Virus record (IMG/VR): IMGVR_UViG_3300030333_004050
Direction: 5' to 3' (one strand)
Origin: an uncultured virus (IMG/VR IMGVR_UViG_3300030333_004050)
Taxonomy: Duplodnaviria; Heunggongvirae; Uroviricota; Caudoviricetes
Length of the DNA stretch: 64,000 nucleotides
Position numbers and translations under genes: made by a program. The notes beneath the pieces are model-generated. The model ran no database searches and was not told the DNA's origin. It saw only the letters and a list, made by a program, of their open reading frames with translations. Shown here piece after piece: positions 9,894-47,651 of this stretch. The stretch's first letter is position 1; every line of letters starts with the position of its first letter.

Positions 9894-10003
9894 ATGTCGA
9901 AGAATGGGCTTCCTCGCGCGTAGCAACTATGCAACTCGTTAGAACAGTTGTAGGACTGTTGAAACTCATTGTAGCCATCTATGTGGTTGGGTGGGTATTG
10001 TGA
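9890..10003 (+). CDS. 37-aa membrane peptide
   Basis: Hand translation MNVEEWASSRVATMQLVRTVVGLLKLIVAIYVVGWVL; GTGA overlaps at both ends. Confidence 0.45.
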   Translation: MNVEEWASSRVATMQLVRTVVGLLKLIVAIYVVGWVL

Positions 10004-10476
10004 ATTGGAAGAGACACCTATACTATACATTGCGCGTGAGATGTGGATTTACCCACCACCAAGCCAGGCGAATTATTTTGGATAGATACGGAACGGCTGA
10101 GCAATTCAGAAATCTATTCCATCGAGAGGCGAAGAAAGAGGCGGAAGAGTTTGCACCCCTCATAGAATCAATCGTCATCTCGGCCGCATCAGCACCAACA
10201 CCCGAAGAGGCGAGTAATCGGATTCTCAAACAGGGGTGGCCGACTTATCCAAAGTCAGAACCAATTTTACCATACTCGATAATTTCTCAATCCACTCGGC
10301 AGGTAGCCCAGTTGAAGGAGTGGCGTAGTCCTTCGACGGAAGCCAGCAAGTTGTGGTATGGACCAAACAAGATTCTCAAACATGAAATCAAACAGGGCAA
10401 ACGCGAGTTTGAGGAACGCAACATTGGAACTTATCTTCAAATTAGGAAGGCGACGAAGTCTCATAATTCTCCTTAA
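10000..10476 (+). CDS. Hypothetical protein
   Basis: Long ORF with a GTGA-coupled start. Confidence 0.6.
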   Translation: MNWKRHLYYTLRVRCGFTHHQARRIILDRYGTAEQFRNLFHREAKKEAEEFAPLIESIVISAASAPTPEEASNRILKQGWPTYPKSEPILPYSIISQSTRQVAQLKEWRSPSTEASKLWYGPNKILKHEIKQGKREFEERNIGTYLQIRKATKSHNSP

Positions 10477-10486
10477 TAGGGTGGGG
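10473..10486 (+). promoter_or_regulatory. Class II promoter
   Basis: TTAATAGGGTGGGG, ATG at 10503. Confidence 0.65.
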
Positions 10487-10502
10487 AATGCCTGTTTTGG
10501 TT

Positions 10503-10673
10503 ATGGGTGGCGCGCGCTATAAGTGTAGTAAGTGTAAGAGAATCGTTCGTTTTTGGGCGGCGCAATCTCGCAAGCCGAAGAAGTGCGCTCGTTGTTGCAG
10601 GGAAGAAAGGGAAGAGAAGGGAACGCCATTTCCTACGCATAACCTTAGCCGAGAACTCGGCGGAAAGCGATAA
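10503..10673 (+). CDS. Basic zinc-ribbon microprotein
   Basis: CSKC...CARC; start at promoter-defined distance. Confidence 0.55.
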   Translation: MGGARYKCSKCKRIVRFWAAQSRKPKKCARCCREEREEKGTPFPTHNLSRELGGKR

Positions 10674-10847
10674 TGTCACTGGTGACAAAAATGAGTAGCC
10701 ACACCAAACGGTATGAGATGTGAAGACAATGCAATACTCCCCTATCCTATATACGCGAGAGCCTATACGAACGCACATCTTATATACTACCATGCAATCC
10801 GACAACTACCGCCGAAGAGAGGCGGGCCAACACAAGGACTGAGAAAA

Positions 10848-12035
10848 ATGAGTAAGCGAACACAAAGAGCAATGAGAGAAGCAACCGAAAGGGCAGGCGG
10901 GAGAATCGACGAGGCGACCTTCTTAGAAGAGACGCACCGTATCATTCACGCCAATGGTGGAGACACCAGTATGGAGTCATTGAAGAAAAATGCCTTCACA
11001 CGCTCACGACTAAGCGGCGCAGGCGTCGAGAGAGTCACAATCGGAACAGACAAGCAAATATGGCTGAGCGAATTAGCCGAGAGAGCGAGAAAGGGAGAAA
11101 TGGGTATCGGCGGCGGAACTGCAATCGCGGCAATCGCGCCTGCGACCGAAGGCGACTTCGGAGTATTTCACGGCGTAGCACGAGCAGACCCCGAACAGTG
11201 GCCTCAACACCTTCGCCACCTTATCCCCGAAGTCAAGGGCTATGTCGAATCCCCACGCGGGGAGTTTAGGCACATAGGCGCAATGGTTCGCCGAAGCCTC
11301 GCAGGTGACTCTTCTAACTGTCATCTGAATGCCGAAGGACCGACAGGTTGCGGTAAATCCCGAATGGCTATGGACTTCTTCGGAGAACTAAACTGGCCTG
11401 TAATCAGAATCAACATGAGCGACGGTGTGTCCGAAGAGACTCTTCTCGGACGCCTTCACCTTGAGGACGGAAATGTCTCATACCTTGACGGAGTATTGGT
11501 CGAGGCTATGGAGAACGGAATCCCAATCATCTGTGACGAAATCAACGCCATGAGAGACAACACGAGCATTGCTATGTTCTCCGCTATGGACTCCGGCTAT
11601 GTCATTCTCCCCGAAGACAATAACCGCGTCGTCCGCGCCAAAGAGGGCTTCATGGTCATTGGAACAATGAACCCTAACTACGCAGGCACTAACGAGCAGA
11701 ACGAAGCATTCCGCAACAGGTTCAGCCGAAAGTTAGTCTTCGAGTATTTGCCCGAAGACCTTGAGGTTGAGGTTATCCAAGCGCAGTCCGGCTTCACCAA
11801 CCACATGGTCGCCACGCAACTGGTCAAGTTTGCGAACGACCTTCGTGAGTTGAAAGAAATGCGAAAGGGCATCACGAGCGACACATCGACTCGTGCTTTG
11901 GTGCAGGTTCTCATGGACTTGCGAGACGGGTTCTCAATCACCGAAGCCCTTGACGAAAACTTCGTCGGCAACTACGGCGAGCGCGAGCGCGAGACAGTCC
12001 AGTTGACCGCACGAGCGCGCCTATCAGACTACTGA
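10848..12035 (+). CDS. MoxR/CbbQ/CobS-like AAA+ ATPase
   Basis: Walker A GPTGCGKS, Walker B IICDEIN, TMNPNYAGT, NEAFRNRF, STRAL. Confidence 0.88.
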   Translation: MSKRTQRAMREATERAGGRIDEATFLEETHRIIHANGGDTSMESLKKNAFTRSRLSGAGVERVTIGTDKQIWLSELAERARKGEMGIGGGTAIAAIAPATEGDFGVFHGVARADPEQWPQHLRHLIPEVKGYVESPRGEFRHIGAMVRRSLAGDSSNCHLNAEGPTGCGKSRMAMDFFGELNWPVIRINMSDGVSEETLLGRLHLEDGNVSYLDGVLVEAMENGIPIICDEINAMRDNTSIAMFSAMDSGYVILPEDNNRVVRAKEGFMVIGTMNPNYAGTNEQNEAFRNRFSRKLVFEYLPEDLEVEVIQAQSGFTNHMVATQLVKFANDLRELKEMRKGITSDTSTRALVQVLMDLRDGFSITEALDENFVGNYGERERETVQLTARARLSDY

Positions 12036-17652: not shown

Positions 17653-19164
17653 GTGACGACCAATACAGACCGTCTAACGCCCCAACAGGCGCGCGAAATC
17701 GCTCTCTATCCCGATAGGTGGTCACAATACTTCCGCACCATCAATGGTGGTCCATTCCTACTGCATGAGCGTCCTTATCTGATTGAGATATACCGACACT
17801 TCGGCGCGACAGGTAAGAATAAGAAAACGAAAATGATAGTTCTAAAGTGCAGTCGAAAAGTCGAGAAGACTGAGACAATCTGTAATCTCCTTCTCTATGG
17901 ACTGTTGAACATACCATACTTCAACGCCGTTTATACTGCGCCCCGTCAACCACAGGTGACGAGGTTTGTTGACGAGAGATTCAACGGCGCGCTAATGTCG
18001 TCAATCAATGGCGGCTGTTTGTTGAAGCCACGAGTGAAGACTTCGGTCAGTCACCAAACCTTCGACATCGGAGCAAGAAATCTCAATCATTTCTATGCCT
18101 ACTCCAACTGGGGTGACGCACACGCGTTGTTAGGAGTCGAAGCGGACTTGTGTTGCATCGACGAATACCAGGATTCTGACTCGGATGTTTTGCCGATGTT
18201 GATTGAGATGCTTGCACAATCTGAGTATAAGTGGGTGGTTGTTAGTGGAACTGCGCGTGAGCAAGGTTCGGAGTTTTGGAAACTATGGGAGAAGTCCACT
18301 AAGGGCGAGTGGGATGGCGAACACTGGGTGCATGGAGAGTCTGACATTATCGGTTATCACATCAGTCAAGAGATGCACCCCGATATTGACGAAGAAGATA
18401 TTGAATACAAACGGAACACATACACTCCACGAAGATTCGCAAACGAAGTGCTGGGTGAGTTCTTCGCAGGGGCTACGAAGCCCCTTACATTCGATGTCGC
18501 GCTCCAGGCTTGCGACCGCGATTTGTTGAGGAACGAGAAAGGATTGACACCACCCGCCGAATCAGTGATGGGTATTGACTGGGGCAACGAGACAACTGTC
18601 GTCATCATGACAAAGGAAGGAACGATTCTCGATGCTCTCAAATTGGATTCAAGGGCTGACCACGAGTCGGATGAGGTAGCAGTCATCAAAGACCTAATGC
18701 TACGCTACAACTGCACACAAGTTGTTGCAGACATAGGATATGGCGCAAGGCAGGTGAAGGAACTCCAACAGGAGTTCGGCGAGCGAGTCCGTTCGTGCTA
18801 CTACTCATCTCGGCCGATGACTCCGTTTGAATACAAGCGTCGAGACAACAATCGGAATCTCATCTATATGTTGGTGGTTGATAGAACGACCTATGTTGAA
18901 GAAACGATTGAAGCAATCAAGAATAACGAGATACGACTTCCCTACGGAGATACTTCGTTAGAATGGGTCTTGCACGAATGGTGCAGTTTGAACTCGTCAG
19001 CAGAAAATGACGAAAAAGACACTCGGCCTGTTCGGGGTCAGAAGTTGACTAAGTATGGAAGAGACGGAGATGACCACGCCTTCCACGCTCTCCTGTATGC
19101 GAGACTTGCGGCTGAATTGGTCGAAGATATTGGAATGCCCGAAGTAAGGGTATTCGGGGCATAG
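17653..19164 (+). CDS. terL: Terminase large subunit
   Basis: Walker A variant SRKVEKT, Walker B CCIDEYQ, motif III SGT, nuclease MGIDWG, VADIGYG, DDHAFHA; upstream of the portal gene. Confidence 0.88.
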   Translation: MTTNTDRLTPQQAREIALYPDRWSQYFRTINGGPFLLHERPYLIEIYRHFGATGKNKKTKMIVLKCSRKVEKTETICNLLLYGLLNIPYFNAVYTAPRQPQVTRFVDERFNGALMSSINGGCLLKPRVKTSVSHQTFDIGARNLNHFYAYSNWGDAHALLGVEADLCCIDEYQDSDSDVLPMLIEMLAQSEYKWVVVSGTAREQGSEFWKLWEKSTKGEWDGEHWVHGESDIIGYHISQEMHPDIDEEDIEYKRNTYTPRRFANEVLGEFFAGATKPLTFDVALQACDRDLLRNEKGLTPPAESVMGIDWGNETTVVIMTKEGTILDALKLDSRADHESDEVAVIKDLMLRYNCTQVVADIGYGARQVKELQQEFGERVRSCYYSSRPMTPFEYKRRDNNRNLIYMLVVDRTTYVEETIEAIKNNEIRLPYGDTSLEWVLHEWCSLNSSAENDEKDTRPVRGQKLTKYGRDGDDHAFHALLYARLAAELVEDIGMPEVRVFGA

Positions 19165-20264: not shown

Positions 20265-20606
20265 ATGTGGGAATACTTTGCAGATGTTCTTCGAGTGGTC
20301 GATGGCGACACAGTCGATGTGCGCGTGGACTTAGGATTCAATGTTCATTTCAAAGTCCGAGTTAGATTACACGGATTGAATGCGCCGGAATCTCGGACTC
20401 GAAATAAGGAAGAGAAGATTCGTGGCCTGGCCGCAAAGGAAAGATTAGAGGAACTATGTAAGGACGGCCGTATAGTAGTGAAGTCTCACGGTGTAGGTAA
20501 GTTCGGGAGATGCTTAGGGGAACTCAAAACTCTAAGCGGACGCAACATCAACAAGACTCTCATTTCAGAAGGACACGCCGTCGAGTATCATGGTGGAAAA
20601 CGCTGA
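20265..20606 (+). CDS. Thermonuclease (staphylococcal nuclease-like)
   Basis: RVVDGDT...VRLHGLNAPE...GKFGRCL...IN-x-x-LISEGHA. Confidence 0.9.
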   Translation: MWEYFADVLRVVDGDTVDVRVDLGFNVHFKVRVRLHGLNAPESRTRNKEEKIRGLAAKERLEELCKDGRIVVKSHGVGKFGRCLGELKTLSGRNINKTLISEGHAVEYHGGKR

Positions 20607-20608
20607 TA

Positions 20609-20644
20609 GCGTAAATGTTATATAGGCACACCCTGTCCGCTAAA
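20609..20644 (+). promoter_or_regulatory. Class I promoter driving ncRNA-A
   Basis: TAAATGTTATATAGGCACACCC; TTATATA at 20618. Confidence 0.75.
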
Positions 20645-20993
20645 ATGTAGTTGGGGGCGAACTGAACACTCGCCCCTCTTAGTCGGACAACAGGTGGGTT
20701 CACCCGCCAGTCGCAGACGGTAAATCAGACGAGCATTCGAGCAACTAATGATGTCTGAACCATTCTCCTACTCATGCCCTATACAGATTGAAACGGGGTG
20801 ACGCGGACGGTAAAATACGCCCCTGTGTGTAGCGGTCCATCTTAGTCCGGCTTGCTTGATAGTGGAATGGAACGCGCAAACCGACGGGTGATGGTCGGGT
20901 TGCTATTGCGCGGGGCGGCGGCCTGCAATCCCAAAAGCCACATCGAGAAGGCCGAAATATGAGAGAAGCACCGTAAAGTAGGCAAAACTACAT
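20645..20993 (+). ncRNA. Candidate structured ncRNA-A (~349 nt)
   Basis: No credible ORF; terminal stem ATGTAGTT/AACTACAT; 5' hairpin GGGGCGA-ACTGAACAC-TCGCCCC shared with ncRNA-B; internal TCAGAC/GTCTGA stem. Confidence 0.65.
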
Positions 20994-21034
20994 CTTCATA
21001 TACGCTTAAAAGCCATATCTGACTGGCTATTATC

Positions 21035-21286
21035 ATGGAGTTAGCATTGGATATAGACACCTTGCTACTGGCGGTCGTGGTTCTCGCAATCTTAGTGCCT
21101 GCCGTAATATGGGGTCTAAGACGCTACCAACAGTTAATGGCCGATGGTAAAATCACATTGAGTGAAGCCCTCGACGCTATCGAGGATGGAGCGGAAATCG
21201 CCAAAGACGCCAAAGAAGAAATCGAAGATGCGATAGACGCGCATAAGGCAAAGAAGGAAGCCGAGTCGAATGACACGAGCGAGTGA
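21035..21286 (+). CDS. Small membrane protein (N-terminal TM)
   Basis: One TM helix then DGKITL-x-E and an acidic coiled coil. Confidence 0.7.
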   Translation: MELALDIDTLLLAVVVLAILVPAVIWGLRRYQQLMADGKITLSEALDAIEDGAEIAKDAKEEIEDAIDAHKAKKEAESNDTSE

Positions 21287-21426
21287 TTTCAGATATTGCC
21301 TCGAAGGACCAGTGGATAGTTGCGCGTCGTTGGGTATTCCCGAAACCCAGTGGTGCGTCTGTTGTCGCATCAAAACCCTCGAAGTTAATCCGACATCGTG
21401 ATAAATCGTCGTGAGGACGGCTTACT

Positions 21427-22911
21427 ATGGCTGAGGAACGCAGACGCCTTCGAGATATTTTCAGAAGGCGTGAAACATCGTCGGCTGAAATCAAAATGCC
21501 GGACAGTGAACCAGCCGATTTAGTATGGGATGGAAAGGCGTTGGCCTCTCTATCAAAAATCGCTACTGTGTCTTCTAAGCGTCAAGGCGCGGGTGGTGCT
21601 GATACCGAAGTCTCGTATCATTTGCTTCGAGATATTTCCTTGAAGAGTGAAGTTGTGAATGCTATCCTACGGAGAACCGTCGATGATGTGCTGGCGAACG
21701 GCTACGAGTTCGCTCTCGCTCCAGGTGTTGAAGAAGGAGAAGAGGCTCAGTTAAACCGACTTCGTGAGTTCATGAAAACTCCAAACCCCGACGACATGGG
21801 TGATGAATGGTTAGAGTCTCTCGTCTATGACCTTGCATTATTCGGAGACGCATACCTTGAGTTGGATGGGTCGAATGACAAGAGCAACAAGAACGGAGAG
21901 GACTGGGTATTCGACGGCGACTTAGTTAGTGTGTGGCCTGTTCCGGCGGAGACAATCAAACTACTACCAGGCAATATGCGACCTAAACCACCTAAGATGG
22001 CGTATATCCAAAGCATACAGAAAAACAAGCGTCGCTTCGCTACAAACAAGATTCTTCACATCTCGAAGTTCAAACACGGAAGAGGCTACGGAACTTCACC
22101 ACTTATTCCACTCCTTAACATCATAGCCGGACAGATGAACCTAAGCAACTATCTCAACGAACTTTTCACAGGAACTTTGCCGAAGACAATCCTGAATGTT
22201 GGAGACATTTCTAATTCTGAAATGAAGGCCATGCTTAGTTTGTTGGAGCAACAACTGACATCCGGTAAGTCTCCATTCGGACTCGTAGCAATCAACGGCG
22301 GGTCGGGATTCAATATGCACAGGCTGATTGACTCAACTCGTGAAGGGCAACAGTTGGACTTACTATACTACTACCGCGAAGAGATATGCGCGGTCTTTGG
22401 TATTCCACCAATGAAACTCGGATGGGTTCAGACTGGAAAGTTAGCCAACCCCGAACAGCAATTAGACGCGTGGTATGATGTGGTCGAGTCTTACCACCAC
22501 AGACTATCCGCCGCCATCAATAACAAACTACTACCACTTCTCGGTGTGACTGACTTTGTAGTCAAGTTCAACACAATACGACCTTCAAGAGAGAGCGAGA
22601 GAGCAGACACATTCCGCCTACAAGCACAGGCAGTCGCCAACCTAAGACAGGAAGCGGCAATCAGCATTAACGAAGCGCGCGAGGTATTGGGGCTTGAGCC
22701 ATTACTTGACAATGAAGATGCAAACGACCCATTCTATCTCAGCCCTAAGTTAGCAATTAACAAAGGTAAGGTTGAGGACGGCGAAGGTGAAGATGATGAC
22801 CAAAGCACCGAAGAAGTCGCAGAAGACTTAGTCGAAGAAGGGATAGTATTCGATATGGAAGAACTCGTTGATTACCGCTTACTCGGTATTGAGAACGAGG
22901 ACTTGACATGA
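21427..22911 (+). CDS. Portal protein (HK97-like)
   Basis: PNP...DLALFGDAYLE...GYGTSPL...EEICAVFGIPP...ISINEAR-x-x-LGL. Confidence 0.92.
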   Translation: MAEERRRLRDIFRRRETSSAEIKMPDSEPADLVWDGKALASLSKIATVSSKRQGAGGADTEVSYHLLRDISLKSEVVNAILRRTVDDVLANGYEFALAPGVEEGEEAQLNRLREFMKTPNPDDMGDEWLESLVYDLALFGDAYLELDGSNDKSNKNGEDWVFDGDLVSVWPVPAETIKLLPGNMRPKPPKMAYIQSIQKNKRRFATNKILHISKFKHGRGYGTSPLIPLLNIIAGQMNLSNYLNELFTGTLPKTILNVGDISNSEMKAMLSLLEQQLTSGKSPFGLVAINGGSGFNMHRLIDSTREGQQLDLLYYYREEICAVFGIPPMKLGWVQTGKLANPEQQLDAWYDVVESYHHRLSAAINNKLLPLLGVTDFVVKFNTIRPSRESERADTFRLQAQAVANLRQEAAISINEAREVLGLEPLLDNEDANDPFYLSPKLAINKGKVEDGEGEDDDQSTEEVAEDLVEEGIVFDMEELVDYRLLGIENEDLT

Positions 22912-23318
22912 AAGCGGGCGTATCACACGGCTTCTTCAGATGCGCTAAGGATTTCCATTTCTTAGGTGCTAACATTGGCGACTCGTTCTCAGAACCAGTG
23001 ACCGATAAACTCGCAAAAGAAATCTTACGAATCTCACAGAAACTCGTTCCCGTAAGAACGGGCGCGCTTAGGGCAACTGGTCGAGTTGTGATGACCAGGC
23101 AAGCAATCAGTAAGTATCGTCGAGGTAAGGAAGTCCGTTATGGAGATTCAAGAGTTCGTTATGCGAATGTTGTTGAGTTTGGACGAATGTCGTTTGCACC
23201 CTTCGCTCCGAGACTCTATCTTACGCGCGCGAACCAGCAAGTGATGATGAAGAATAAGAAAATAGCAAAGAAGGATTTGAAAAAAGTAATCCGAAAGGGA
23301 ATCAAACGGAGATATTGA
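22908..23318 (+). CDS. HK97 gp10-like neck/tail component
   Basis: VPVRTGALR...YANVVEFG...PRLYL motif. Confidence 0.7.
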   Translation: MKAGVSHGFFRCAKDFHFLGANIGDSFSEPVTDKLAKEILRISQKLVPVRTGALRATGRVVMTRQAISKYRRGKEVRYGDSRVRYANVVEFGRMSFAPFAPRLYLTRANQQVMMKNKKIAKKDLKKVIRKGIKRRY

Positions 23319-23319
23319 A

Positions 23320-23688
23320 ATGGCGAAGACAAACTTTCCAAACAGGGGCGACGACCAAAAAGTCAGCCTCGCTAATTCTGAATACAAACAGTTCCCATTA
23401 TCTGAGGCTCAGAAACTCAAGGATGAATGGCCTCAGATATGGAAGAAGGGTGGGAACATTCTCGGTAATACACAATTCAAACGCTTGAAGAAAGTTAAGG
23501 AGACAGGAGTCAAAACTCCAACAGATGAGAAGGCGGTTCGTCTTAGAGAGGCATGGTCGGCTCGTCATTACAAAGACTTCCGACTTGCAGGTGTGGTTGC
23601 TCAGATTAAGTGGCTCATGGTCGGAAGTCGAGGACTTTCACACATGAGGAAAGTCATCAGTGACGAGAAAGCCAGGCTTCGGAAATAA
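23320..23688 (+). CDS. Hypothetical protein in the head module
   Basis: 122-aa basic ORF between portal and protease genes. Confidence 0.7.
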   Translation: MAKTNFPNRGDDQKVSLANSEYKQFPLSEAQKLKDEWPQIWKKGGNILGNTQFKRLKKVKETGVKTPTDEKAVRLREAWSARHYKDFRLAGVVAQIKWLMVGSRGLSHMRKVISDEKARLRK

Positions 23689-23725
23689 GGGAATCCGTCA
23701 TTAACCCCTTCGAGTCCAATGGCCT

Positions 23726-25462
23726 ATGATGGACACGCTATCGGCAACGCTCATCAAGGACCATAGGCTCTTTGATTCAATAGAAGGGGATGAAACGGAA
23801 GCCGTAATTCTCTATCGAGTCGAAACTCCATTCGTTCTAATGAAGGACGCGAATAAGGATGCGACTTCTGATGTCAGAATCAAAGGACCAGTGTATGTCG
23901 GTGACGATGATATGCTGGACCGACACAATGAGTTGGTTGACAATGATGCTATCATGGCCGCATGGGAAGGCTACAAGAAAAATCCAGTAGTCCTGTATAA
24001 TCACTCTAAGACCTACGGAGTCATTGGTGTCATGGAAGATGTGCAGTTGGGGAAGTTCAAGAAACCCGACGGCACTAAGATAGAAGTTCCAATCGGTGTC
24101 GCGCGTATAGATAGTGGCGAGAAGGACATAACCCGAAAGATAAGCAAGGGTATGCTACGAGCATTCTCAATCGGATTCATTGCTAAAGCCGCAGTCAAGG
24201 AATGCAAGGATGAGGATTCATGCTACATGAGATTCACCGAGATTGAGTGGTTAGAAACTTCCGTAGTTGATGTTCCCGCTTCTCCAGGCGCGCTATTCTC
24301 CGTCGAGAAGTCTTTGCTCTCGGCTGACATTTCCAATGTTGATTTCAGCATTGATGAGATATTCGATGCAAACAAAGCCGGACAGTTCCAGGCACAACCG
24401 AAGGTTCACGCTACGGTTCTCCGTAGTGCCGAAGAGAAATCTTGCGGTGGTGGTAGTTCTTGCACTTGCGATTCAAAGGAAGTTGAAACCGAAGAGAAGC
24501 ACATTGTCGCAATCGAAGAGGACGACTCGAATTACTACTTGACATTCGGTAAAGCCGAAGATTTGGACGATATGGACGACGCAGGCTACAAACCCGACGA
24601 TGAAGATAAGGATTTGAAGGGTGTAATCGGAGAACTGCTCGACAGAATTAGTATTCTCGAAGCCACTCTTGAGGCGGCTGAGGAAAAGGGCGGACTAAGC
24701 GATTCCGTTAATACCCCCCTATCGGACTCGGTAGGTTTGATGACTTCCGAGCAAGTAGTTGTTGAAGACGCAGACATTGAGGAAAAGACCCTCGAAGATG
24801 CTGAAATCTCCGATGCAGTGACAACTGAGGAAGTTGTCCTTGAGCCTACTCTTGAAACAAAGGACGCAGATGAGTCCGAAGAGGACGAGGCAGACGAGAC
24901 TGACGCTGAGGACGAGGCAGAAGAAGAGACAGACGAGACTGAGGCTGAGGCTGAGGACGACGACGCTGAGGACGACGACGCTGAGGACGATGCTGACGAA
25001 GAAGTCGAGGAAGAGGACGACGACGCTGAGGCTGATGAAGTCGAAGAGAAGTCCGATGACCTTCCATCCACTGTTGACATCCTAATGCAGGTTGTCAAGG
25101 CTCTAACTGATGTCGAGACATCGGTCGCTAACATGACCGCGCGCATTGACGAGACTGAGGAACTAAAGGCCGCTCTAAACGAGCGAGACGCACACATTCA
25201 AACTCTTACCGAAGAGAAAGCACAGGCTGAACAAGAAGCCGAGATTGAGGCTGAAGTCGCTAAGAGAATCGCCGAGCGTGTAGGGGATGCACCCGCACCA
25301 AAGGCAAAGGCTGAGAGGAAATCCCTCGTGCCTTCATACCCGCCAAAAGAGAAGACTGGCGTGACCAAACTCGACCCCCAACCGTCCGTGACTCCAGGCA
25401 TGGCCGGATTAGCAGGCTGGCTTGAAGGCCGCTTATCGGACAGAACAGGGGTCGAGAACTGA
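23726..25462 (+). CDS. HK97-family prohead protease fused to an acidic scaffold domain
   Basis: DRHNE...NPVVLYNH...AFSIGF...ETSVVDVPASP; acidic and coiled-coil C-terminal half. Confidence 0.9.
   Translation: MMDTLSATLIKDHRLFDSIEGDETEAVILYRVETPFVLMKDANKDATSDVRIKGPVYVGDDDMLDRHNELVDNDAIMAAWEGYKKNPVVLYNHSKTYGVIGVMEDVQLGKFKKPDGTKIEVPIGVARIDSGEKDITRKISKGMLRAFSIGFIAKAAVKECKDEDSCYMRFTEIEWLETSVVDVPASPGALFSVEKSLLSADISNVDFSIDEIFDANKAGQFQAQPKVHATVLRSAEEKSCGGGSSCTCDSKEVETEEKHIVAIEEDDSNYYLTFGKAEDLDDMDDAGYKPDDEDKDLKGVIGELLDRISILEATLEAAEEKGGLSDSVNTPLSDSVGLMTSEQVVVEDADIEEKTLEDAEISDAVTTEEVVLEPTLETKDADESEEDEADETDAEDEAEEETDETEAEAEDDDAEDDDAEDDADEEVEEEDDDAEADEVEEKSDDLPSTVDILMQVVKALTDVETSVANMTARIDETEELKAALNERDAHIQTLTEEKAQAEQEAEIEAEVAKRIAERVGDAPAPKAKAERKSLVPSYPPKEKTGVTKLDPQPSVTPGMAGLAGWLEGRLSDRTGVEN
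24707..24719 (+). promoter_or_regulatory. Class III promoter inside the protease ORF
   Basis: TCCGTTAATACCCCC, same core as the promoter at 26602-26616. Confidence 0.65.
24740..25462 (+). CDS. Nested in-frame scaffolding protein (MTSEQVVV...)
   Basis: In-frame ATG 32 nt after the internal TTAATA; acidic, coiled coil, C-terminal amphipathic helix. Confidence 0.6.
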   Translation: MTSEQVVVEDADIEEKTLEDAEISDAVTTEEVVLEPTLETKDADESEEDEADETDAEDEAEEETDETEAEAEDDDAEDDDAEDDADEEVEEEDDDAEADEVEEKSDDLPSTVDILMQVVKALTDVETSVANMTARIDETEELKAALNERDAHIQTLTEEKAQAEQEAEIEAEVAKRIAERVGDAPAPKAKAERKSLVPSYPPKEKTGVTKLDPQPSVTPGMAGLAGWLEGRLSDRTGVEN

Positions 25463-25484
25463 AACTGAAAAAAGAGGAATTGAG

Positions 25485-26549
25485 ATGACAAGCGAAGAAA
25501 TACAATTTACGGATGTTGTCGAGAGAGTCAAAGCGGCCCTCGCAGGCGCGGCTTCGGCTACTGGCGCAACTTTCCTACCGACCGAAACTGCCGAAGAAAT
25601 AATTGAATTGGTGTATGAGAGAAACTTCATGAGAAGCCTTCTCCCTGCTATGCCTATGTCAAGGAGAATCGTCAAAGTGCCTAAGTTAACTGGCTCAATT
25701 GACTTCCACCAGCAGACTCTAACAAACACTGAGTCCGGTGACTCCCCGACAGAAAGCCGCCATGCAACCAACGAGATTACACTTGAGTTGAAGACCATGA
25801 TGGCTAACATCCCTATCGGAAATTACCTGGTAGCGTATGGTGTTGAGGGTCTTCTATCTGTTCTCCGTGAGGACATTGCGAGCCGACTGGCTTTCAACGA
25901 GGCTAACCTATTCATCAATGCTGACACTGAGTCAACATTGGCTGACAACATCATGGGTGCTTACAACGCTTCAACCAACACTGGCGGTATCTCAACCACC
26001 AGTGGAAGCGAGAAGAACGACTACCTACTCGTCTTTGACGGGCTAAGGAAGTCCGCTTCCGCATCCGCAGTCTCCGTTAGCGGAACTTTTGCTCTATCAC
26101 ACCTACGAAGTGCTATCTCCAATCTCGGAGTATATGCAGACAACAGGGATGACTTGGCGTTTATCGTTCCACGAAACCTTGAGGTTCAACTACTCGGTCT
26201 AACTGAGTTGCAGACTGTTGACAAGTATGGTCCAGCCGCTACTATCCTAAACGGAGAAGTAGGACGAATCTATGGAATCCGCACCTTCGCAACTGGTGTA
26301 ATCCCAACCAACCAGGCATACGACGGAACTTCCGATGCTGGCTCATCCAGCACTCAGACTTCCGCTCTTCTAACCCATGTTAGAAGCCCAATGGTCGGAA
26401 ACTCCACTGTTGCCGAGCGAAGATTCAGCATTGGATTCCACGACGAGCCAACTAAGGACAGGTTCGTATTGATTCCAAAGCAAGATGTGGCGTTTGCAGT
26501 CCGCTATGGCCCAGCCATTTGCGAACTACAAGGCATTAACACAGTCTAA
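25485..26549 (+). CDS. Major capsid protein (HK97 fold)
   Basis: Position after the scaffold; GATFLPTE-x-A-x-x-II, FINAD, FDGL-x-K, GRIYGI. Confidence 0.88.
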   Translation: MTSEEIQFTDVVERVKAALAGAASATGATFLPTETAEEIIELVYERNFMRSLLPAMPMSRRIVKVPKLTGSIDFHQQTLTNTESGDSPTESRHATNEITLELKTMMANIPIGNYLVAYGVEGLLSVLREDIASRLAFNEANLFINADTESTLADNIMGAYNASTNTGGISTTSGSEKNDYLLVFDGLRKSASASAVSVSGTFALSHLRSAISNLGVYADNRDDLAFIVPRNLEVQLLGLTELQTVDKYGPAATILNGEVGRIYGIRTFATGVIPTNQAYDGTSDAGSSSTQTSALLTHVRSPMVGNSTVAERRFSIGFHDEPTKDRFVLIPKQDVAFAVRYGPAICELQGINTV

Positions 26550-26604
26550 GCAGGTGAAATGTAAGTTGTAGGGTGTGGGGCTTTGCCCCCGCCTTGACGA
26601 CTCC

Positions 26605-26616
26605 GTTAATACCCCC
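26605..26616 (+). promoter_or_regulatory. Class III promoter
   Basis: GTTAATACCCCC, ATG at 26635. Confidence 0.7.
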
Positions 26617-26634
26617 GTTTGGGTCTGTTGTAGC

Positions 26635-27273
26635 ATGGCTGAGATTGACTACTGCACTCTCGCTGATGTTGAGATGTATGCAGGTGTGGACTTTTCCGAA
26701 GGTATCGGTCCTACTGACGCTCAGATAGCGAGCATGATAACCAATGCTTCACGCATGGTTGATGCTTACGCTGGACGACAGTTAGCGGGAACTGAATCAC
26801 ATACAGAACACTTTGACGCATACTACGGCACACGACACATCACATTGGCTCAACGCCCAGTGGTGTCTGTATCATCCGTTGTCACCATAGACTCGAATGG
26901 TAATGAGACTACACTGGATGAAGGAAGACAGCGCGCGACTCACGACTGGTGGCTCGACGACGCTGACGCTGGTATCATTAGATTTCATTTTGCTAAGGCT
27001 GAACACCTACGGCAATACATCAAGGTGACATACACCGCAGGTAAGGCGACCGCACCAATAGAAGCGAAGATGGCGACCATAATGTTGGTAGCGAGACAGT
27101 GCGCGAGAGCGGCACTCAATGATGAGAACTGCACCGAGCGCATGAAGGCGTTTTGGCGACCCCTACTGGCCTCAACCGAGAAGGAATACAAAGAGATGCT
27201 CGACCGTGTGAAGCGTATGGCTCTCGTAGGTGTATCGACATACGGCATCTATGATACCACGCGGACGAGGTAA
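26635..27273 (+). CDS. Head-tail adaptor (gp6/gp15-like)
   Basis: YCTLADV...AS-x-x-VD-x-Y-x-GR...PVVSVSSV...IKVTYTAG...P. Confidence 0.8.
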   Translation: MAEIDYCTLADVEMYAGVDFSEGIGPTDAQIASMITNASRMVDAYAGRQLAGTESHTEHFDAYYGTRHITLAQRPVVSVSSVVTIDSNGNETTLDEGRQRATHDWWLDDADAGIIRFHFAKAEHLRQYIKVTYTAGKATAPIEAKMATIMLVARQCARAALNDENCTERMKAFWRPLLASTEKEYKEMLDRVKRMALVGVSTYGIYDTTRTR

Positions 27274-27278
27274 TCAAG

Positions 27279-27785
27279 ATGGCGATTACAGATAGTGGAG
27301 TTCCAACAACCGACCCACATACAATGCTCAAGACTCTCATTACGGACCACCTGGTATCTCCCGACGGAGTATGGACGCCCGTAGTTAACACTGGGTGGTT
27401 AGAGTTCAAGCGACAGAAAACATACCAAATCTCAATCATGCCTTCGTATGGTGAATCCGAAGATTCTCACTTTTCGGGTGCAACAACCATGCCTAAGACT
27501 GTATCTCAATTCTTTGTAGTCACACTTTATGCTCCAACGAGAGCGAAACATTGGGATTTATTTCAGAAGTTCACTGACCTAATGAATACGCGCGCCCTTA
27601 CTTGCCCCGACCTTACAGGGCAAGGAGTTGATGGTTCAGACTATCACTTTGTCAAGATGTTCCGGTCGGATTCGGTGAAAGCCATTGAACTCGAAAGCCC
27701 GAAGAAGGGTATGGGTGGTGATGCGGAAGGTGACTGCATCGGCTACCAGTCTCACCATAATATCTTGATTCGTTGGAATGAGTAA
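27279..27785 (+). CDS. Probable tail terminator/neck protein
   Basis: Size and position after the adaptor gene. Confidence 0.5.
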   Translation: MAITDSGVPTTDPHTMLKTLITDHLVSPDGVWTPVVNTGWLEFKRQKTYQISIMPSYGESEDSHFSGATTMPKTVSQFFVVTLYAPTRAKHWDLFQKFTDLMNTRALTCPDLTGQGVDGSDYHFVKMFRSDSVKAIELESPKKGMGGDAEGDCIGYQSHHNILIRWNE

Positions 27786-27829
27786 GTGATATACCCTAAT
27801 TCTTATATACCCTAACCCCTTCCCATAGA
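27782..27829 (+). promoter_or_regulatory. Class I promoter cassette driving ncRNA-B
   Basis: GTAAGTGATATACCCTAATTCTTATATACCCTAACCCC, near-identical at 29036 and 29193. Confidence 0.8.
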
Positions 27830-28004
27830 ATGTAAGTGGGGGGCGAACTGAACACTCGCCCTCAGAAGATACCGAGAACGCATGAGTCGGTGACGGCAAG
27901 GCCCAATGGCGGGTCGCGTGGGTGTGCAACCTGCGAGCGAGTTAGGACTTCCCTTCGGTATCAAGGCGAAAAGGGAGCAAAAAAACAGAAGCCGCAACAC
28001 TTAC
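27830..28004 (+). ncRNA. Candidate structured ncRNA-B (~175 nt)
   Basis: Terminal stem GTAAGTG/CACTTAC; 23-nt hairpin identical to ncRNA-A; GATACCGA/TCGGTATC stem. Confidence 0.65.
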
Positions 28005-28099
28005 TCCCCCTGCCTTGAGATGTGTTTAGCGACCATCTCTCGTAGGTTGCGCGTCTCCGGCGCGTTAAGACCGCCCTGTTCGGGTGTGTGTTTGGGGGA
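28005..28099 (+). ncRNA. Multibranch structured segment following ncRNA-B
   Basis: TCCCCC/GGGGGA closing stem enclosing three hairpins (GAGATG/CATCTC, GCGCGTC/GGCGCGT, CGCCC/GGGTG); G-U pairs favour the + strand. Confidence 0.45.
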
Positions 28100-28104
28100 T
28101 TCTC

Positions 28105-28145
28105 ATATATCTAAACTCTTATATACCCTAACCCCTTCCCATAGA
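28105..28145 (+). promoter_or_regulatory. Class I promoter cassette driving ncRNA-C
   Basis: TCTTATATACCCTAACCCCTTCCCATAGAATGTAAG identical to 27801-27836. Confidence 0.8.
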
Positions 28146-28204
28146 ATGTAAGGAACGAGTGAGCCGACCACATATCGTGATGACATCGGCCTCGTCTCCT
28201 TACA
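28146..28204 (+). ncRNA. Candidate ncRNA-C (~59-nt bulged hairpin)
   Basis: Nested stems TGTAAGGA/TCCTTACA, ACGAG/CTCGT, GCCGA/TCGGC. Confidence 0.65.
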
Positions 28205-28252
28205 CAACGGTTCAAGCCCCTTATCCAATAACCTCGTATCTATGCGAAGTTT

Positions 28253-28642
28253 ATGGCGGAAAAGGCGGCATTCATGCCCTATTTCGTGGCCCTATTGGTC
28301 GCGCAATCGGGGTGCTTTGGAATGATTCTAACTACGCCAGCCACATACCCAACTTCGATGTTTTTTTGGGAAGACGGCGAATGCTTTTGGCTCAACGGCA
28401 CGATAGAAGACAAGAGGATTCTTCACAACGAAGACGGATTCAACTACCTGTTCCTGGTCAACGGCACGATAAACAACGAGACTCCTTACTTAGCGGAAGT
28501 TGCTGGAGATAGGGTTCTGTATGCAATTTTACCAGTCGGGGCGAATCATGAAGACGAAGTGTGCGATTCAATCACACTACGCGAAGCCTTCACAAACGGC
28601 ACGATTAAACTAATTCATTGGGGTTTGAACCAAGACAGTTAA
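28253..28642 (+). CDS. Hypothetical secreted or membrane protein
   Basis: Hydrophobic N-terminus; several N-x-T sequons. Confidence 0.55.
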   Translation: MAEKAAFMPYFVALLVAQSGCFGMILTTPATYPTSMFFWEDGECFWLNGTIEDKRILHNEDGFNYLFLVNGTINNETPYLAEVAGDRVLYAILPVGANHEDEVCDSITLREAFTNGTIKLIHWGLNQDS

Positions 28643-28668
28643 GAGCCTAATTCGATGGTTGGGTGGTT

Positions 28669-29043
28669 ATGGAAGACCTATCCAGTCTATTGAAAGCCGA
28701 ACTCGTCTCGCTATGCGAGGAAAACGGACTTGCTACTGACGGCAAAAAATCTGTTCTCGTTGAGCGATTGACCGCTCATCTATACCCTTCCGAAGAAGCA
28801 GTTGAGGAAGAAGCAGTTGAGGAAGTCAAGGTGTCAAAGAATAACATGGACCTACCTTCGACTGACCTTGAAGCAATGAGCGTCAAGGACTTCGTCGAAG
28901 CCGCTTACCTTGCTGTCTTAGGACGCGAGGCTGACTTCGCAGGTTCAAGGCACTACCAACAACGCTTAGGCGTCATGGGTAGCATGACCCGCCAGGAAAT
29001 GCTTGACGATTTATTCAACTCAGCCGAATACAAGAGTAAGTGA
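28669..29043 (+). CDS. SAP-domain protein with DUF4214-like C-terminus
   Basis: LLKAELVSLCEENGLATDGKKSVLVERL (SAP); FVEAAYLAVLGREAD-x-x-G-x-x-HY...F-x-S-x-EY. Confidence 0.75.
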   Translation: MEDLSSLLKAELVSLCEENGLATDGKKSVLVERLTAHLYPSEEAVEEEAVEEVKVSKNNMDLPSTDLEAMSVKDFVEAAYLAVLGREADFAGSRHYQQRLGVMGSMTRQEMLDDLFNSAEYKSK

Positions 29044-29083
29044 TATACCCTAACTCTTATATACCCTAAGCCTCTCGCACAGT
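29036..29083 (+). promoter_or_regulatory. Class I promoter cassette driving ncRNA-D
   Basis: Direct repeat of 29193-29240; TTATATA at 29057. Confidence 0.8.
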
Positions 29084-29177
29084 ATAGAGGTAGCCCCGAC
29101 ACCGACACATCATCGTCGGCAGTAAGGACCAATAGGGCGGTTCGGCCGGACTGCGGGTGCAAATCCCGATGCCTCTA
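29084..29177 (+). ncRNA. Candidate tRNA-like ncRNA-D (~94 nt)
   Basis: Acceptor-like stem TAGAGGTA/TGCCTCTA, T-arm CGGG-TGCAAAT-CCCG, GCCC/GGGC D-like stem, no proper anticodon arm. Confidence 0.65.
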
Positions 29178-29192
29178 ACTTCAATTTCAAAG

Positions 29193-29240
29193 GTAAGTGA
29201 TATACCCTAACTCTTATATACCCTAACCCCCTCGCACAGT
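29193..29240 (+). promoter_or_regulatory. Class I promoter cassette driving ncRNA-E
   Basis: Direct repeat of 29036-29083; TTATATA at 29214. Confidence 0.8.
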
Positions 29241-29327
29241 ATAGAGCAAAAGGGCGGAAAAGACTGACTCGGACGGGCCTACTTTGAGAGGACATGGATG
29301 ACACCGCTCGGACCGCCTTTTGCTCTA
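29241..29327 (+). ncRNA. Candidate ncRNA-E (~87 nt)
   Basis: 15-bp terminal stem TAGAGCAAAAGG(G)CGG/CCGCCTTTTGCTCTA with one bulged G. Confidence 0.65.
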
Positions 29328-29351: not shown

Positions 29352-29362
29352 GTTAATACCCC
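29352..29362 (+). promoter_or_regulatory. Class III promoter
   Basis: GTTAATACCCC, ATG at 29385. Confidence 0.6.
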
Positions 29363-29384
29363 TCTTTGATAGGGCTTTATTCAG

Positions 29385-47434: not shown

Positions 47435-47474
47435 TAACCTAAACCTTATATACCCTAACCCCCTCGCGTTAAAC
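47432..47474 (+). promoter_or_regulatory. Class I promoter cassette
   Basis: TGATAACCTAAACCTTATATACCCTAACCCC...AAAC-ATG. Confidence 0.8.
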
Positions 47475-47651
47475 ATGAGAGACGACATACGAATACAATT
47501 GTTAGAAGACGGAATAGTGTATCTTGACATAGGCGAAGAACTGGTTGGGCCGTGTGGTCACAGCATGGACGAAGTATTGGACCAGTGGGTTGACTGTGAC
47601 TGTTGCGAAGAAGTCTTCGAGTTCACCATAGTCGAAGGGGTGGTATTATGA
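47475..47651 (+). CDS. 58-aa acidic microprotein
   Basis: Hand translation MRDDIRIQLLEDG...CGH...CDCCE; leaderless start. Confidence 0.65.
   Translation: MRDDIRIQLLEDGIVYLDIGEELVGPCGHSMDEVLDQWVDCDCCEEVFEFTIVEGVVL

Follow-up and report, generated by a model that had tools for sequence, protein, structure and literature searches.

What is transcribed from a promoter that opens onto no gene? The 64,000-nucleotide stretch of viral DNA analysed here (the window) contains 18 copies of TTATATA, against 2.98 expected, and none of 100 shuffles contained at least 18. Among 12 of its + strand copies, 10 have an ATG 28–31 nt past the first T, opening ORFs of 34–755 codons. Five others, at 20618, 27803, 28119, 29057 and 29214, had been read in a first-pass annotation as promoter cassettes for ORF-less units closed by inverted repeats, and cassettes with stem-closed units downstream were indeed present at all five.

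The window has the head genes of a tailed virus (portal, S78 protease, HK97-type capsid and terminase), together with PolB, RFC-like AAA, Cpn60/TCP1 chaperonin and helicase genes; its relatives are complete contigs of 69–83 kb from marine samples. The magrovirus description (PMC5434244) gives as hallmarks a marine genome of ~65–100 kb, tailed-virus head genes, a chaperonin of the thermosome type and replication genes of the archaeal type. By gene content, the carrier is of the magrovirus type, with Poseidoniales (Marine Group II archaea) as predicted hosts.

Promoter cassettes and closed units

The features of the region, all on the + strand, are as follows.

20265..20606, +, Staphylococcal-nuclease-like gene (Pfam PF00565, E 2.7e-11), immediately preceding unit 1
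20609..20644, +, promoter of unit 1 (TATA box TTATATA, 20618–20624)
20645..20993, +, unit 1, ~349 nt, predicted fold
27777..27835, +, 59-nt promoter cassette, copy 1 (TATA 27803), overlapping the preceding gene's stop codon
27830..28004, +, unit 2 (module A), 175 nt
28005..28100, +, module B, a ~95-nt four-way junction directly after the closing helix of unit 2 (from the alignment and by eye)
28093..28151, +, 59-nt promoter cassette, copy 2 (TATA 28119)
28146..28204, +, unit 3, 59 nt, an imperfect hairpin that starts with ATGTAAGG; candidate free RNA
29031..29089, +, 59-nt promoter cassette, copy 3 (TATA 29057)
29084..29177, +, unit 4, ~94 nt, multi-hairpin, closed by TAGAGGTA/TGCCTCTA; this strain only
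29188..29246, +, 59-nt promoter cassette, copy 4 (TATA 29214)
29241..29327, +, unit 5, ~87 nt, 15-bp closing stem with one bulge

TTATATA is followed by GGCACACCC at 20618 and by CCCTAA at the other four sites. The stretch between the TATA box and the start of unit 1, ACCCTGTCCGCTAAA, is kept along with the RNA gene in other viruses. The final 36 nt of cassette copy 2 are identical to copy 1, so that direct repeats flank unit 2 and module B; at these two copies, a DNA contig jumps back 316 with 36 letters in common. Units 1–3 have an ATG at +27, followed immediately by a TAG or TAA stop, and units 4 and 5 have no ATG at this position. Transcription would start at the A of the ATG, as in the leaderless mRNAs of the same virus.

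The closing inverted repeats lie at the predicted starts, as first described, and were recovered in the minimum-energy folds. Four of the five units have a strict 7-nt Watson-Crick repeat with its start no more than a few nucleotides from +27, against one of the 12 other TTATATA sites and 13.4% of 5000 random positions. Some details needed amendment: the arms of the unit 4 stem pair, but one pair is G.U; the “15-bp” stem of unit 5 is present, but interrupted by a 1-nt bulge; and the length of ~175 nt given for unit 2 holds for module A (27830–28004), whereas the structure continues to ~28100. No ORF is conserved, in keeping with the description “ORF-less”, but units 1 and 2 are overlapped by chance ORFs of 36–81 codons; in homologues, the longest + strand ORF has only 20–26 codons. 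When folding was compared with dinucleotide shuffles, proposed as a check, the z-scores were modest (-1.98, -1.11, -4.39, -1.85 and -2.99 for units 1–5), those of units 1 and 2 being unremarkable. The first reading did not include three features: module B, the 5' ATG-TAA/TAG start-stop and the strain-variable cassettes.

Units 1 and 2: paralogous members of a new RNA family

The five units had been presented as one family, a view that has to be narrowed: homology was found between units 1 and 2 only, and the promoter cassette and closed-end design are the sole features that units 3–5 have in common with them. Units 1 and 2 are built on one plan. A helix of 6–8 bp (P1) links the extreme 5' end, with its AUG-UAA/UAG, to the 3' end; a GC-rich hairpin (H1) has a covarying stem and a 9-nt loop, ACUGAACAC, that is never altered; a second helix (P2) surrounds strain-variable inserts; and an A-rich tail lies at the 3' end. 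In unit 1, P1 is ATGTAGTT/AACTACAT, H1 spans 20653–20676 with the invariant loop ACTGAACAC at 20661–20669, and GTCGGAC pairs with GTCCGGC in P2, the inserted domains varying from strain to strain. In unit 2, P1 is GTAAGTG/CACTTAC, the H1 loop lies at 27847–27855, P2 (GATACCGAG/TTCGGTATC) encloses three small hairpins, and the 3' tail of module A contains AAAGGG and AGAAGC.

The covariation check proposed for homologues supported a structured RNA for both units. The L012/L203 homologue, which is syntenic with unit 1, retains the loop and has three of the eight H1 pairs changed on both sides. P2 covaries (GAC/GUC versus GGC/GCC), its sequences in units 1 and 2 being quite unlike. Variants of unit 1 (L204, L234, L236 and L233) include a compensatory C-G to G-C change and, in L236, a paired 1-bp deletion. 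P1, the closing helix, does not vary within the unit 2 type. Pattern scans found the same RNA in four of 28 IMG/VR stretches and nine of 11 metagenome stretches; the remaining matches, in which the stem was missing, were attributed to chance, and a scan of 185,579 species genomes gave no match.

Module B consists of a closing helix, CCCCC/GGGGG, around three hairpins (Ha, Hb and Hc), with 4–7 nt between the third hairpin and the closing helix. A model built from two module B sequences (R1) detected L209 (E 0.007) and L203/L012 (E 0.008) in 828 kb. Nine of 21 pairs are changed on both sides and 98.6% of cells are paired, values matched by 0–1 of 500 shuffles and compared with 36–61% paired in slid controls; the alignment was fitted to its model and only four or five distinct lineages are available, several of them close, so these covariation statistics are low in power. 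The conserved G.U pairs fit an RNA of the + strand only, as they would be C.A on the opposite strand. The Hc loop, TGTTC (28077–28081), is complementary to the H1 loop in all four lineages, a match that arises in 8.2% of shuffled module B sequences; both loops are invariant, and therefore do not covary. Unit 1 has no UGUUC partner for its H1 loop.

As the first-pass annotation had anticipated, no known Rfam family was assigned to the units, either at the gathering score or, for the region, the units alone and three homologues, up to E 10 with lax filters. Covariance models of archaeal, bacterial and type T RNase P RNA gave no match at the gathering score or at E ≤10, and the Archaea_SRP model gave none for SRP (7S) RNA in the window, the region, the three homologues or the units alone. 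Rfam models of known ribozymes and introns (group I/II, hammerhead, twister and HDV-like, among others), GOLLD and ROOL, and the phi29-type pRNA profile, were also without a match. The sole box C/D sRNA profile matches (E 9.6–9.8) fall in the acidic repeat of the scaffold gene, and a CRISPR-DR20 match (E 8.2, minus strand) was considered noise. ARAGORN found no tRNA genes in the 64 kb. Across the four lineages, the middle hairpin of module B carries loops of 7, 3, 4 and 6 nt, so that it cannot hold an anticodon loop, and a tRNA-like module B was rejected.

RNA accumulation and cassette exchange

Unit 1 and unit 2 RNAs far exceed the capsid message in one marine metatranscriptome. In this run (X20), one RNA contig was confined to unit 1 (20696–20983, depth 97.4, no mismatches) and another to unit 2 and module B (27872–28098, depth 29.6), with a depth of 7.7–12.7 for capsid-gene contigs; these data come from one run of one study, as contigs, and show neither ends nor strand. 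Both contigs start 42–51 nt inside the predicted 5' end of the RNA. No cover was obtained for 20 of 30 bins of the stretch or for units 3–5 in X20, and three DNA runs covered the stretch evenly, at a depth of 2–7. The confined contigs bear out, for units 1 and 2, the prediction of discrete, abundant RNAs.

The RNA genes are cassettes, consisting of one repeated strong promoter and a payload, in slots otherwise holding small leaderless protein genes. Relatives that are 94–98% identical have such genes in place of RNA units: small ORFs occupy the unit 2/3 slot in L001 (98% identical) and L002 (94%), both of which lack unit 4, and unit 5 is missing from L002. The nuclease-like gene and unit 1 form an accessory block with no match in L003, L004 and L013; the nuclease-like gene is present in G002 and absent from G001. 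In G001, the RNA gene lies amid six like promoters driving small leaderless genes, ~4 kb from the terminase gene; RNAs of this virus type have T7 at the end, beyond which come an AT-rich spacer and a new promoter. In L230, module A is of the G001 type and module B of the window type, and the RNA genes are also shared with an unrelated 69-kb virus.

Units 3–5, for which there are near-zero comparative data, are probably further small RNAs on the same plan. The fold z-score of unit 3 is -4.39 on the + strand and -4.92 on the opposite strand; a variant in L231 has changes at positions 16 and 46, and GUGAUGA was seen by eye in the apical part, without a D box partner. Unit 5 was found in L001 and L343 with one C-to-T change.

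Nature of the RNAs and comparison with known systems

The region probably encodes independently transcribed, stable, non-coding RNAs of a magrovirus-type tailed archaeal virus. The alternative that fares best, although improbable, is that the units serve the downstream protein genes at 21035, 28253 and 29385 as 5' leaders or as riboswitch-, attenuator- or stabiliser-like elements acting in cis. Every unit is indeed upstream of a same-strand gene, no T run follows units 1–5 in the window, and unit 3 takes the form of a simple 5' hairpin, 49 nt before the start of the 28253 gene. Nevertheless, the RNA contigs end at 20983 and 28098, with zero cover of the downstream genes in X20; the same downstream genes are expressed in close relatives without the units; a TTAATA box of its own lies 29 nt before the 29385 gene (by eye); and the G001-type RNA has a T7 end, with a spacer and a fresh promoter after it.

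A somewhat smaller chance was given to a virion-assembly or DNA-packaging RNA like phi29 pRNA, with complementary loops joining copies into a ring at the portal or terminase. Unit 1 lies between the terminase (17653–19164) and portal (21427–22911) genes and unit 2 just after the head-completion gene; the RNAs are abundant, their complementary loops are conserved in four of four lineages, and module A, at 175 nt, is of pRNA-like size. However, relatives with capsid proteins 92–98% identical do without the RNA (L001 and L002 lack unit 2, and L003, L004 and L013 the unit 1 block), the G001 gene sits among small leaderless genes away from the terminase, no pRNA profile matched, and the loop complementarity could be due to chance, given its frequency in shuffled sequences.

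Two further explanations are very unlikely. The units could be a highly diverged cellular RNA (RNase P, SRP, tRNA-like or an intron/ribozyme) unseen by profiles. As with RNase P and SRP RNA, a helix closes both ends, the four-way junction of module B is cloverleaf-like, and GAAGGCCGGAG after the first hairpin and the GGUAAA motifs resemble conserved regions of RNase P. Against this, the profile searches and ARAGORN found nothing, the middle-hairpin loop of module B ranges from 3 to 7 nt, the units are dispensable and strain-variable and, to our knowledge, RNase P has nothing that corresponds to the part after P2. Alternatively, the repeats might act as DNA, as recombination or insertion hot spots or protein-binding sites, with the RNA a by-product of a strong promoter. 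Four copies of the 59-nt cassette do flank the units, gain and loss occur exactly at these repeats, and hairpin energies are similar on both strands; but compensatory changes preserve internal helices far from the repeats, the conserved G.U pairs favour the + strand, the 9-nt loop is fixed while its stem changes, and the RNAs accumulate well above neighbouring messages. Finally, the coding of tiny proteins or peptides that escape ORF rules can be set aside almost entirely: a 17-codon ATG frame in unit 1 stays open despite a 3-nt deletion in L236 (by eye) and chance ORFs of 60 and 81 codons cross unit 2 and module B, but the frame is wholly deleted from L234 and the changes in it affect both partners of a base pair, the longest + strand ORFs of the four unit 2 lineages (60, 24, 26 and 20 codons) lie in different places, and the 5' AUG is followed by an immediate stop in all members.

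If the region does encode free non-coding RNAs, the immediate stop codon and closing helix would keep them untranslated and protect their ends, and the invariant loop would be their working surface, able to form a kissing contact of 7–8 bp with the UGUUC loop of module B, within or between molecules. Such RNAs would be accessory, host-directed factors rather than virion machinery. Their context tentatively suggests that they engage a host protein, of RNA binding or of defence, as its decoy or scaffold. More speculatively, and with a low probability, they could be the first case of an archaeal virus with accessory weapons made of RNA: modular A+B RNAs in which ACUGAACAC docks with the UGUUC loop of the same or another copy. 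The compact particle or multimer so built would trap a host factor, whether a defence nuclease or a protein of translation or RNA processing, and viruses would exchange modules and whole cassettes as they do genes for anti-defence proteins. In that case, the 5' AUG-stop would amount to a leaderless “empty message”, bringing the RNA to initiating ribosomes or hiding it from them.

Adenovirus VA RNA and the Epstein-Barr EBERs, eukaryotic Pol III transcripts of ~160–170 nt with their own promoters, are protein decoys. Like the RNAs described here, they are virus-encoded, non-coding and very abundant, with an own promoter and a terminal stem, but no sequence or structural homology is known, and the decoy role here would be an analogy; we know of no archaeal counterpart of their partners, PKR and La. 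The phi29 pRNA is likewise a structured tailed-virus RNA of ~170 nt near packaging genes; its complementary loops join copies, but it is essential and conserved in its phage group, whereas the RNAs here match no such profile, are missing from near-identical strains and have a putative loop-loop contact. GOLLD and ROOL, the abundance of which is tied to the lytic cycle, share complex multi-domain folds in variable regions of tailed viruses, but they are bacterial, measure 500–800 nt and are not related by sequence or structure to the RNAs here, which are of 270–350 nt, from an archaeal virus and under TATA promoters. RNA anti-CRISPRs (Racr) and the phage pseudo-ToxI antitoxin RNAs are also small viral RNAs in accessory slots, mimics that disarm host defence; they are recognised by their likeness to a host CRISPR or ToxI repeat. 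The only CRISPR-repeat profile match here was the CRISPR-DR20 one considered noise. The T4 RNAs C and D (species 1 and 2), encoded beside the tRNA genes of that phage, are similarly small, stable, structured, non-essential and located among accessory genes, but they are cut from a tRNA precursor and have tRNA-like ends, unlike the RNAs of this virus, which has no tRNA genes or features.

Promoter sites lacking the usual ORF

The word TTATATA occurs 18 times in the window, against three expected. Outside the five sites considered here, 10 of the 12 occurrences on the + strand are followed at 28–31 nt by an ATG opening an ORF of 34–755 codons, the arrangement seen with archaeal TATA promoters of leaderless mRNAs. 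The first-pass annotation had reported five sites at which the usual ORF was missing, and no such ORF was found at any of the five. Units 1–3 have an ATG at +27, followed immediately by TAG or TAA; units 4 and 5 start with TATAGAG. Four of the five sites are included in a 59-nt repeated cassette (at 27777, 28093, 29031 and 29188). The payloads are:

20645–20993, + strand, unit 1
27830–28004, + strand, unit 2, module A
28005–28100, + strand, module B, directly after module A of unit 2
28146–28204, + strand, unit 3
29084–29177, + strand, unit 4
29241–29327, + strand, unit 5

The inverted repeat described as closing each unit at its predicted start was also recovered: the first bases of the predicted transcript pair with bases 58–349 nt downstream at all five sites, and the minimum-energy folds of all five units use these closing stems. 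A strict 7-nt repeat near the predicted start was present at four of the five sites, versus one of the 12 other TTATATA words and 13.4% of random positions. The fold z-scores proposed as a check were all negative but modest (−1.98, −1.11, −4.39, −1.85 and −2.99 for units 1–5), unimpressive alone, and those of the short units were equally good on the opposite strand.

The word GTTAATACCCC is found three times in the window (24707–24718, 26605–26616 and 29352–29363). Two copies, lying about 29–33 nt 5' of the ATGs at 26638 and 29385, resemble a TATA-type promoter of a second, weaker kind serving leaderless late genes; the remaining copy is inside the protease-scaffold gene. At 10780–10850, a TTATATA without an ATG at +28 precedes a predicted transcript that opens with a hairpin (CCGCCGAAGAGAGGCGG), the ATG lying about 70 nt downstream, and would head a leadered gene among leaderless ones.

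The RNA family of units 1 and 2

Units 1 and 2 constitute a single RNA family. The 5' end of both is AUGUA(G/A), and next comes a GC-rich hairpin, H1, whose loop is ACUGAACAC. The order of elements in module A is the 5' strand of the closing helix P1, H1, a short purine-rich joiner, the second helix P2, a 3' tail with AAAGGG and (A/G)AAGC motifs, and the 3' strand of P1. P2 differs by lineage and encloses 43–156 nt of lineage-specific hairpins.

Helices P1 and P2 of module A, by lineage
P1 (6–8 bp, containing the AUG), unit 2 type: GUAAGUG/CACUUAC
P1, unit 1 type: (A)UGUAGUU/AACUACA(U)
P2, unit 2: GAUACCGAG/UUCGGUAUC
P2, loci L209 and L230: GACCGGAG/CUCCG-A-GUC
P2, locus L203: GGCCGGAG/CUCUG-A-GCC
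P2, unit 1: GUCGGAC/GUCCGGC

Members of the unit 1 type were found in the window, L204, L233, L234 and L236, and unit 2-type members in L203/L235, in L209 (with identical copies on five more contigs), in L230, in the window and in L231, a near-twin of the window. A pattern combining the 5' motif and the loop matched 28 IMG/VR stretches, four of which had the flanking 8-bp stem, the other 24 being chance matches with 0–4 pairs; the same pattern gave 11 stretches in the metagenome collection, nine of them real, and none in the species-genome collection. A broader scan yielded at least 120 matches, with three real among the matches listed, making the family size a lower bound; a second broad scan also yielded at least 120, and of the six among those listed that have a TATA-like word upstream, one (L343) carries unit 5. 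Unit 1 variants differ by whole domains inserted or deleted at two sites; in the L236 variant, a C-G pair is replaced by G-C and one hairpin is shorter by a paired 1-bp deletion.

Module B, directly 3' of P1 in the unit 2 type, consists of a closing helix and three hairpins (Ha, Hb and Hc) with conserved joiners (UGC, GUU, UAAGNCC and G(A)UU). Unit 2 was therefore present as described, but the length of about 175 nt assigned to it was too short. A covariance model built from the window and L230 only recovered L209 (E 0.007) and L203/L012 (E 0.008) in 828 kb, and gave no other convincing match in 57 sources; a search of two complete virus records with the same model, through a first pass too coarse to be informative, gave no match, though both carry module B.

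Covariation bore out the proposal of structured RNAs for units 1 and 2. MAFFT alignments of both modules were poor in their variable parts, and model-based alignment and helices drawn by eye were therefore used. L012, a locus on the same contig as L203 (record G002), has a unit 2-type RNA at the place of unit 1, with an H1 stem of GGUGGUGU/ACACCACC versus GGGGGCGA/UCGCCC(C/U)C elsewhere and an identical loop; three of the eight H1 pairs were changed on both sides, with 100% of cells paired. In the module B alignment of four lineages, 98.6% of cells were paired and 9/21 pairs showed changes on both sides, values reached by 0 or 1 of 500 shuffles; sliding the partners by 1–3 columns reduced pairing to 36–61%. 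This evidence is good but not overwhelming, because the alignment leans towards the structure and has four rows only. Conserved G.U pairs, such as the Hb closing pair in three of the four rows, fit an RNA transcribed from the + strand. In L230, an L209-type module A is fused to a window-type module B, and the modules therefore recombine as units. In the four lineages of unit 2, the longest ORF on the + strand has 60, 24, 26 and 20 codons, respectively; these ORFs lie at differing places, and none is conserved.

All five units had been taken for one family, and this stands for the homologous units 1 and 2, whereas comparison of units 3–5 with these two revealed no homology. Units 3–5 do have the promoter and closed-end design, and are plausible, undemonstrated small RNAs. 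Unit 3 is a 59-nt hairpin, from which L231 differs at positions 16 and 46, changes that may represent both partners of a single pair. Unit 5 is shared with L001 and L343, apart from one C-to-T change, and unit 4 was found in the window only.

Other ORF-poor stretches behind TATA boxes were seen in the relatives. A 302-nt unit in L080 (7863–8201; also in L044 and L045), closed at its predicted start by a 9-bp stem (GAACTGAGT/ACTCAGTTC), has GAAGACC and GAAAGCC motifs in common with module A and also a 56-codon basic ORF, and may be an mRNA rather than an RNA gene. In L076 (3994–4150), L077 (13349–13505) and L078 (9419–9575), an ORF-less stretch of about 110 nt, closed by GAGAGG/CCTCTC, lies 5' of a gene; as a structured RNA this element was rejected, the two distinct sequences showing 0/37 covarying predicted pairs and two broken pairs. 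In L033 (− strand, 7121) and L037 (− strand, 9146), no ORF lies within reach of a TATA box, which is followed by GC-rich sequence conserved in both relatives, a candidate RNA or long leader.

Expression and the carrier viruses

Seven pieces of the 9.2-kb stretch were recovered from one public marine metatranscriptome kept as contigs (X20).

X20 contigs matching the window
20696–20983, 289-nt contig with no mismatch, wholly within unit 1: depth 97.4
27872–28098, 228-nt contig spanning module A into module B: depth 29.6
Within 25758–26819, three capsid-gene contigs: depth 7.7–12.7
24739–24930, one scaffold-gene contig: depth 3.5
28792–28825, foreign 34-nt match: depth 2016

The RNAs of units 1 and 2 are strongly expressed, as discrete pieces, in this one study, from whose contigs neither the ends nor the strand of a transcript can be read. 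The 228-nt contig stops 2 nt short of the end of the module B closing helix, and 20 of 30 bins had no cover, including the genes immediately downstream of unit 1 and of unit 2 with module B; both contigs are without the first 42–51 nt (P1 and H1). Three DNA runs from three studies covered the stretch evenly, at a depth of 2–7, so DNA carry-over was not the source of the RNA peaks. The earlier suggestion of independently transcribed, abundant RNAs thus holds for units 1 and 2, both at greater depth than the capsid gene; units 3–5 had no cover, which is uninformative at such short RNA lengths and was also the case for most genes. The 34 nt at 28792–28825, within a SAP/DUF4214 gene, match a contig that probably comes from another organism; two DNA runs showed this match as well, and its unlike flanks were the same there.

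The head genes of the window encode a terminase, a portal, an S78 protease-scaffold protein, an HK97-type capsid protein and a head-completion protein, and further genes encode a family-B DNA polymerase, an RFC-like AAA ATPase, a thermosome-type Cpn60/TCP1 chaperonin, helicases and an ArdC-like protein. The gene set of the window is that reported for the magroviruses, which are linked to Marine Group II archaea (PMC5434244); judged from its genes, the carrier would be such a virus. Relatives of the capsid protein are encoded by 101 of 102 candidate IMG/VR stretches (80 loci were kept), and the complete relatives are marine contigs of 69–83 kb. Among 50,697 phage records, the sole capsid-protein match was to a Microcystis phage (22.8%); the same query against the species-genome collection gave one locus, in a MAG labelled Legionellales, with no host information to be drawn from it. 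The ArdC-like gene (2575–3570) combines an ArdC-like N-terminal domain and a zincin metallopeptidase, of anti-restriction type, in an archaeal virus. An acidic, D/E-rich repeat in the protease-scaffold gene (24897–24995; 24976) is length-polymorphic in the sea, with 97 nt skipped in one DNA run and 9 extra nt in another.

The RNA genes vary between close strains. In L001 (98% identical over 4 kb), unit 2, module B and unit 3 are replaced by a small leaderless gene behind a promoter of the same kind; unit 4 is absent and unit 5 is kept. This small gene (MRDDIRIQLLEDG...; L001 4070–4250) is at another place in the window (47446–47620), and promoter-plus-payload cassettes therefore move within genomes. 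L002 (94% identical) has a different small gene in the unit 2/3 slot and is without units 4 and 5. Unit 2 and module B are flanked by 36 identical cassette bases, at which one DNA assembly closes on itself. Unit 1 forms one accessory block (20265–20993) with a staphylococcal-nuclease-like gene in the window, G002, L204, L233, L234 and L236; no match to this gene or to unit 1 was obtained in L003, L004 and L013, with capsid proteins 92–93% identical. A general link between nuclease gene and RNA was rejected, as it holds in the window type and G002 but fails in G001, which has the RNA and no such gene. In G001 (L362), an unrelated 69-kb virus of 42.6% G+C, the RNA gene stands out as a GC-rich island with T7 at its end, and the virus's own promoter, TGCTACAAAAAAA(CC/GG)TTATA, is present six times within 7545–11290, five copies heading small leaderless genes and one the RNA. 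The TATA-to-start stretch (ACCCUGUCCGCU) accompanies the RNA gene in the window, G001 and G002. The upstream word TGCTACAAA of G001 also makes palindromes nearby, and may therefore be a regulator site.

Proposed function and known RNA classes

The RNAs are compact, abundant and non-coding products of independent genes, dispensable and horizontally exchanged. Transcription would start at the A of the ATG, as in the adjacent leaderless genes; the stop as second codon and the burial of the AUG in P1 would keep ribosomes off the RNA, the closed ends would slow exonucleases, and the H1 loop, the element that never changes, would be the recognition surface. A search within the window for targets complementary to this loop (complement GUGUUCAGU) found none, and CTGTTCGGG occurs at two further window sites, both inside coding sequence. 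The loop bases CUGAACA are complementary to UGUUCGG in and beside the Hc loop of module B (7–8 pairs, 4/4 lineages); pairing between the two is put forward as a hypothesis, because the same complementarity arises in 8.2% of shuffled module B sequences and neither loop varies. Unit 1 has no such partner, and its H1 loop would therefore be free for contact in trans.

As the RNAs fill slots taken in related strains by small, fast-changing leaderless genes, we tentatively regard them as accessory host-directed factors, most likely serving as decoy or scaffold to a defence or RNA-binding protein of the host. A packaging or assembly role like that of phi29 pRNA would suit the gene order and the complementary loops, but is hard to square with the absence of the RNAs from near-identical strains, and we consider it very improbable. 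For the host-directed reading, RNAs that outnumber the capsid message, keep a 9-nt loop unchanged amid otherwise changing sequence and are traded between unrelated viruses point to a host-cell interaction that is both strong and specific. They would represent a new class of archaeal virus–host factor, would serve as a handle on the host partner and would mark active infection in metatranscriptomes; they would also caution that annotation centred on proteins overlooks genes in the 'intergenic' parts of environmental virus genomes.

The RNAs had been described as not assignable to any known family, and Rfam indeed gave no match in the whole window at gathering scores, and noise only (E 7–10) with lax filters applied to the 9-kb region, three homologues and each unit alone. 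Some unit motifs resemble those of RNase P; an RNase P, SRP or tRNA-like identity was rejected, having no Rfam support at any threshold, and ARAGORN found no tRNA. The three unit regions had no blastn match in the 50,697 phage records. A literature search found nothing on such RNAs, and the available portions of two magrovirus papers (PMC5434244 and PMC11706807) make no mention of non-coding RNA or promoters. Set against this literature, we rate the family as new in kind, although it may later fall into a known functional class by virtue of its function. Among the nearest in kind are phi29 pRNA and the large phage-borne RNAs GOLLD and ROOL, the profiles of which, like those of the other nearest kinds where one exists, the RNAs did not match. 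The RNA decoys of defence systems are also among the nearest in kind, as are VA RNA and the EBERs, abundant viral RNAs with closed ends.
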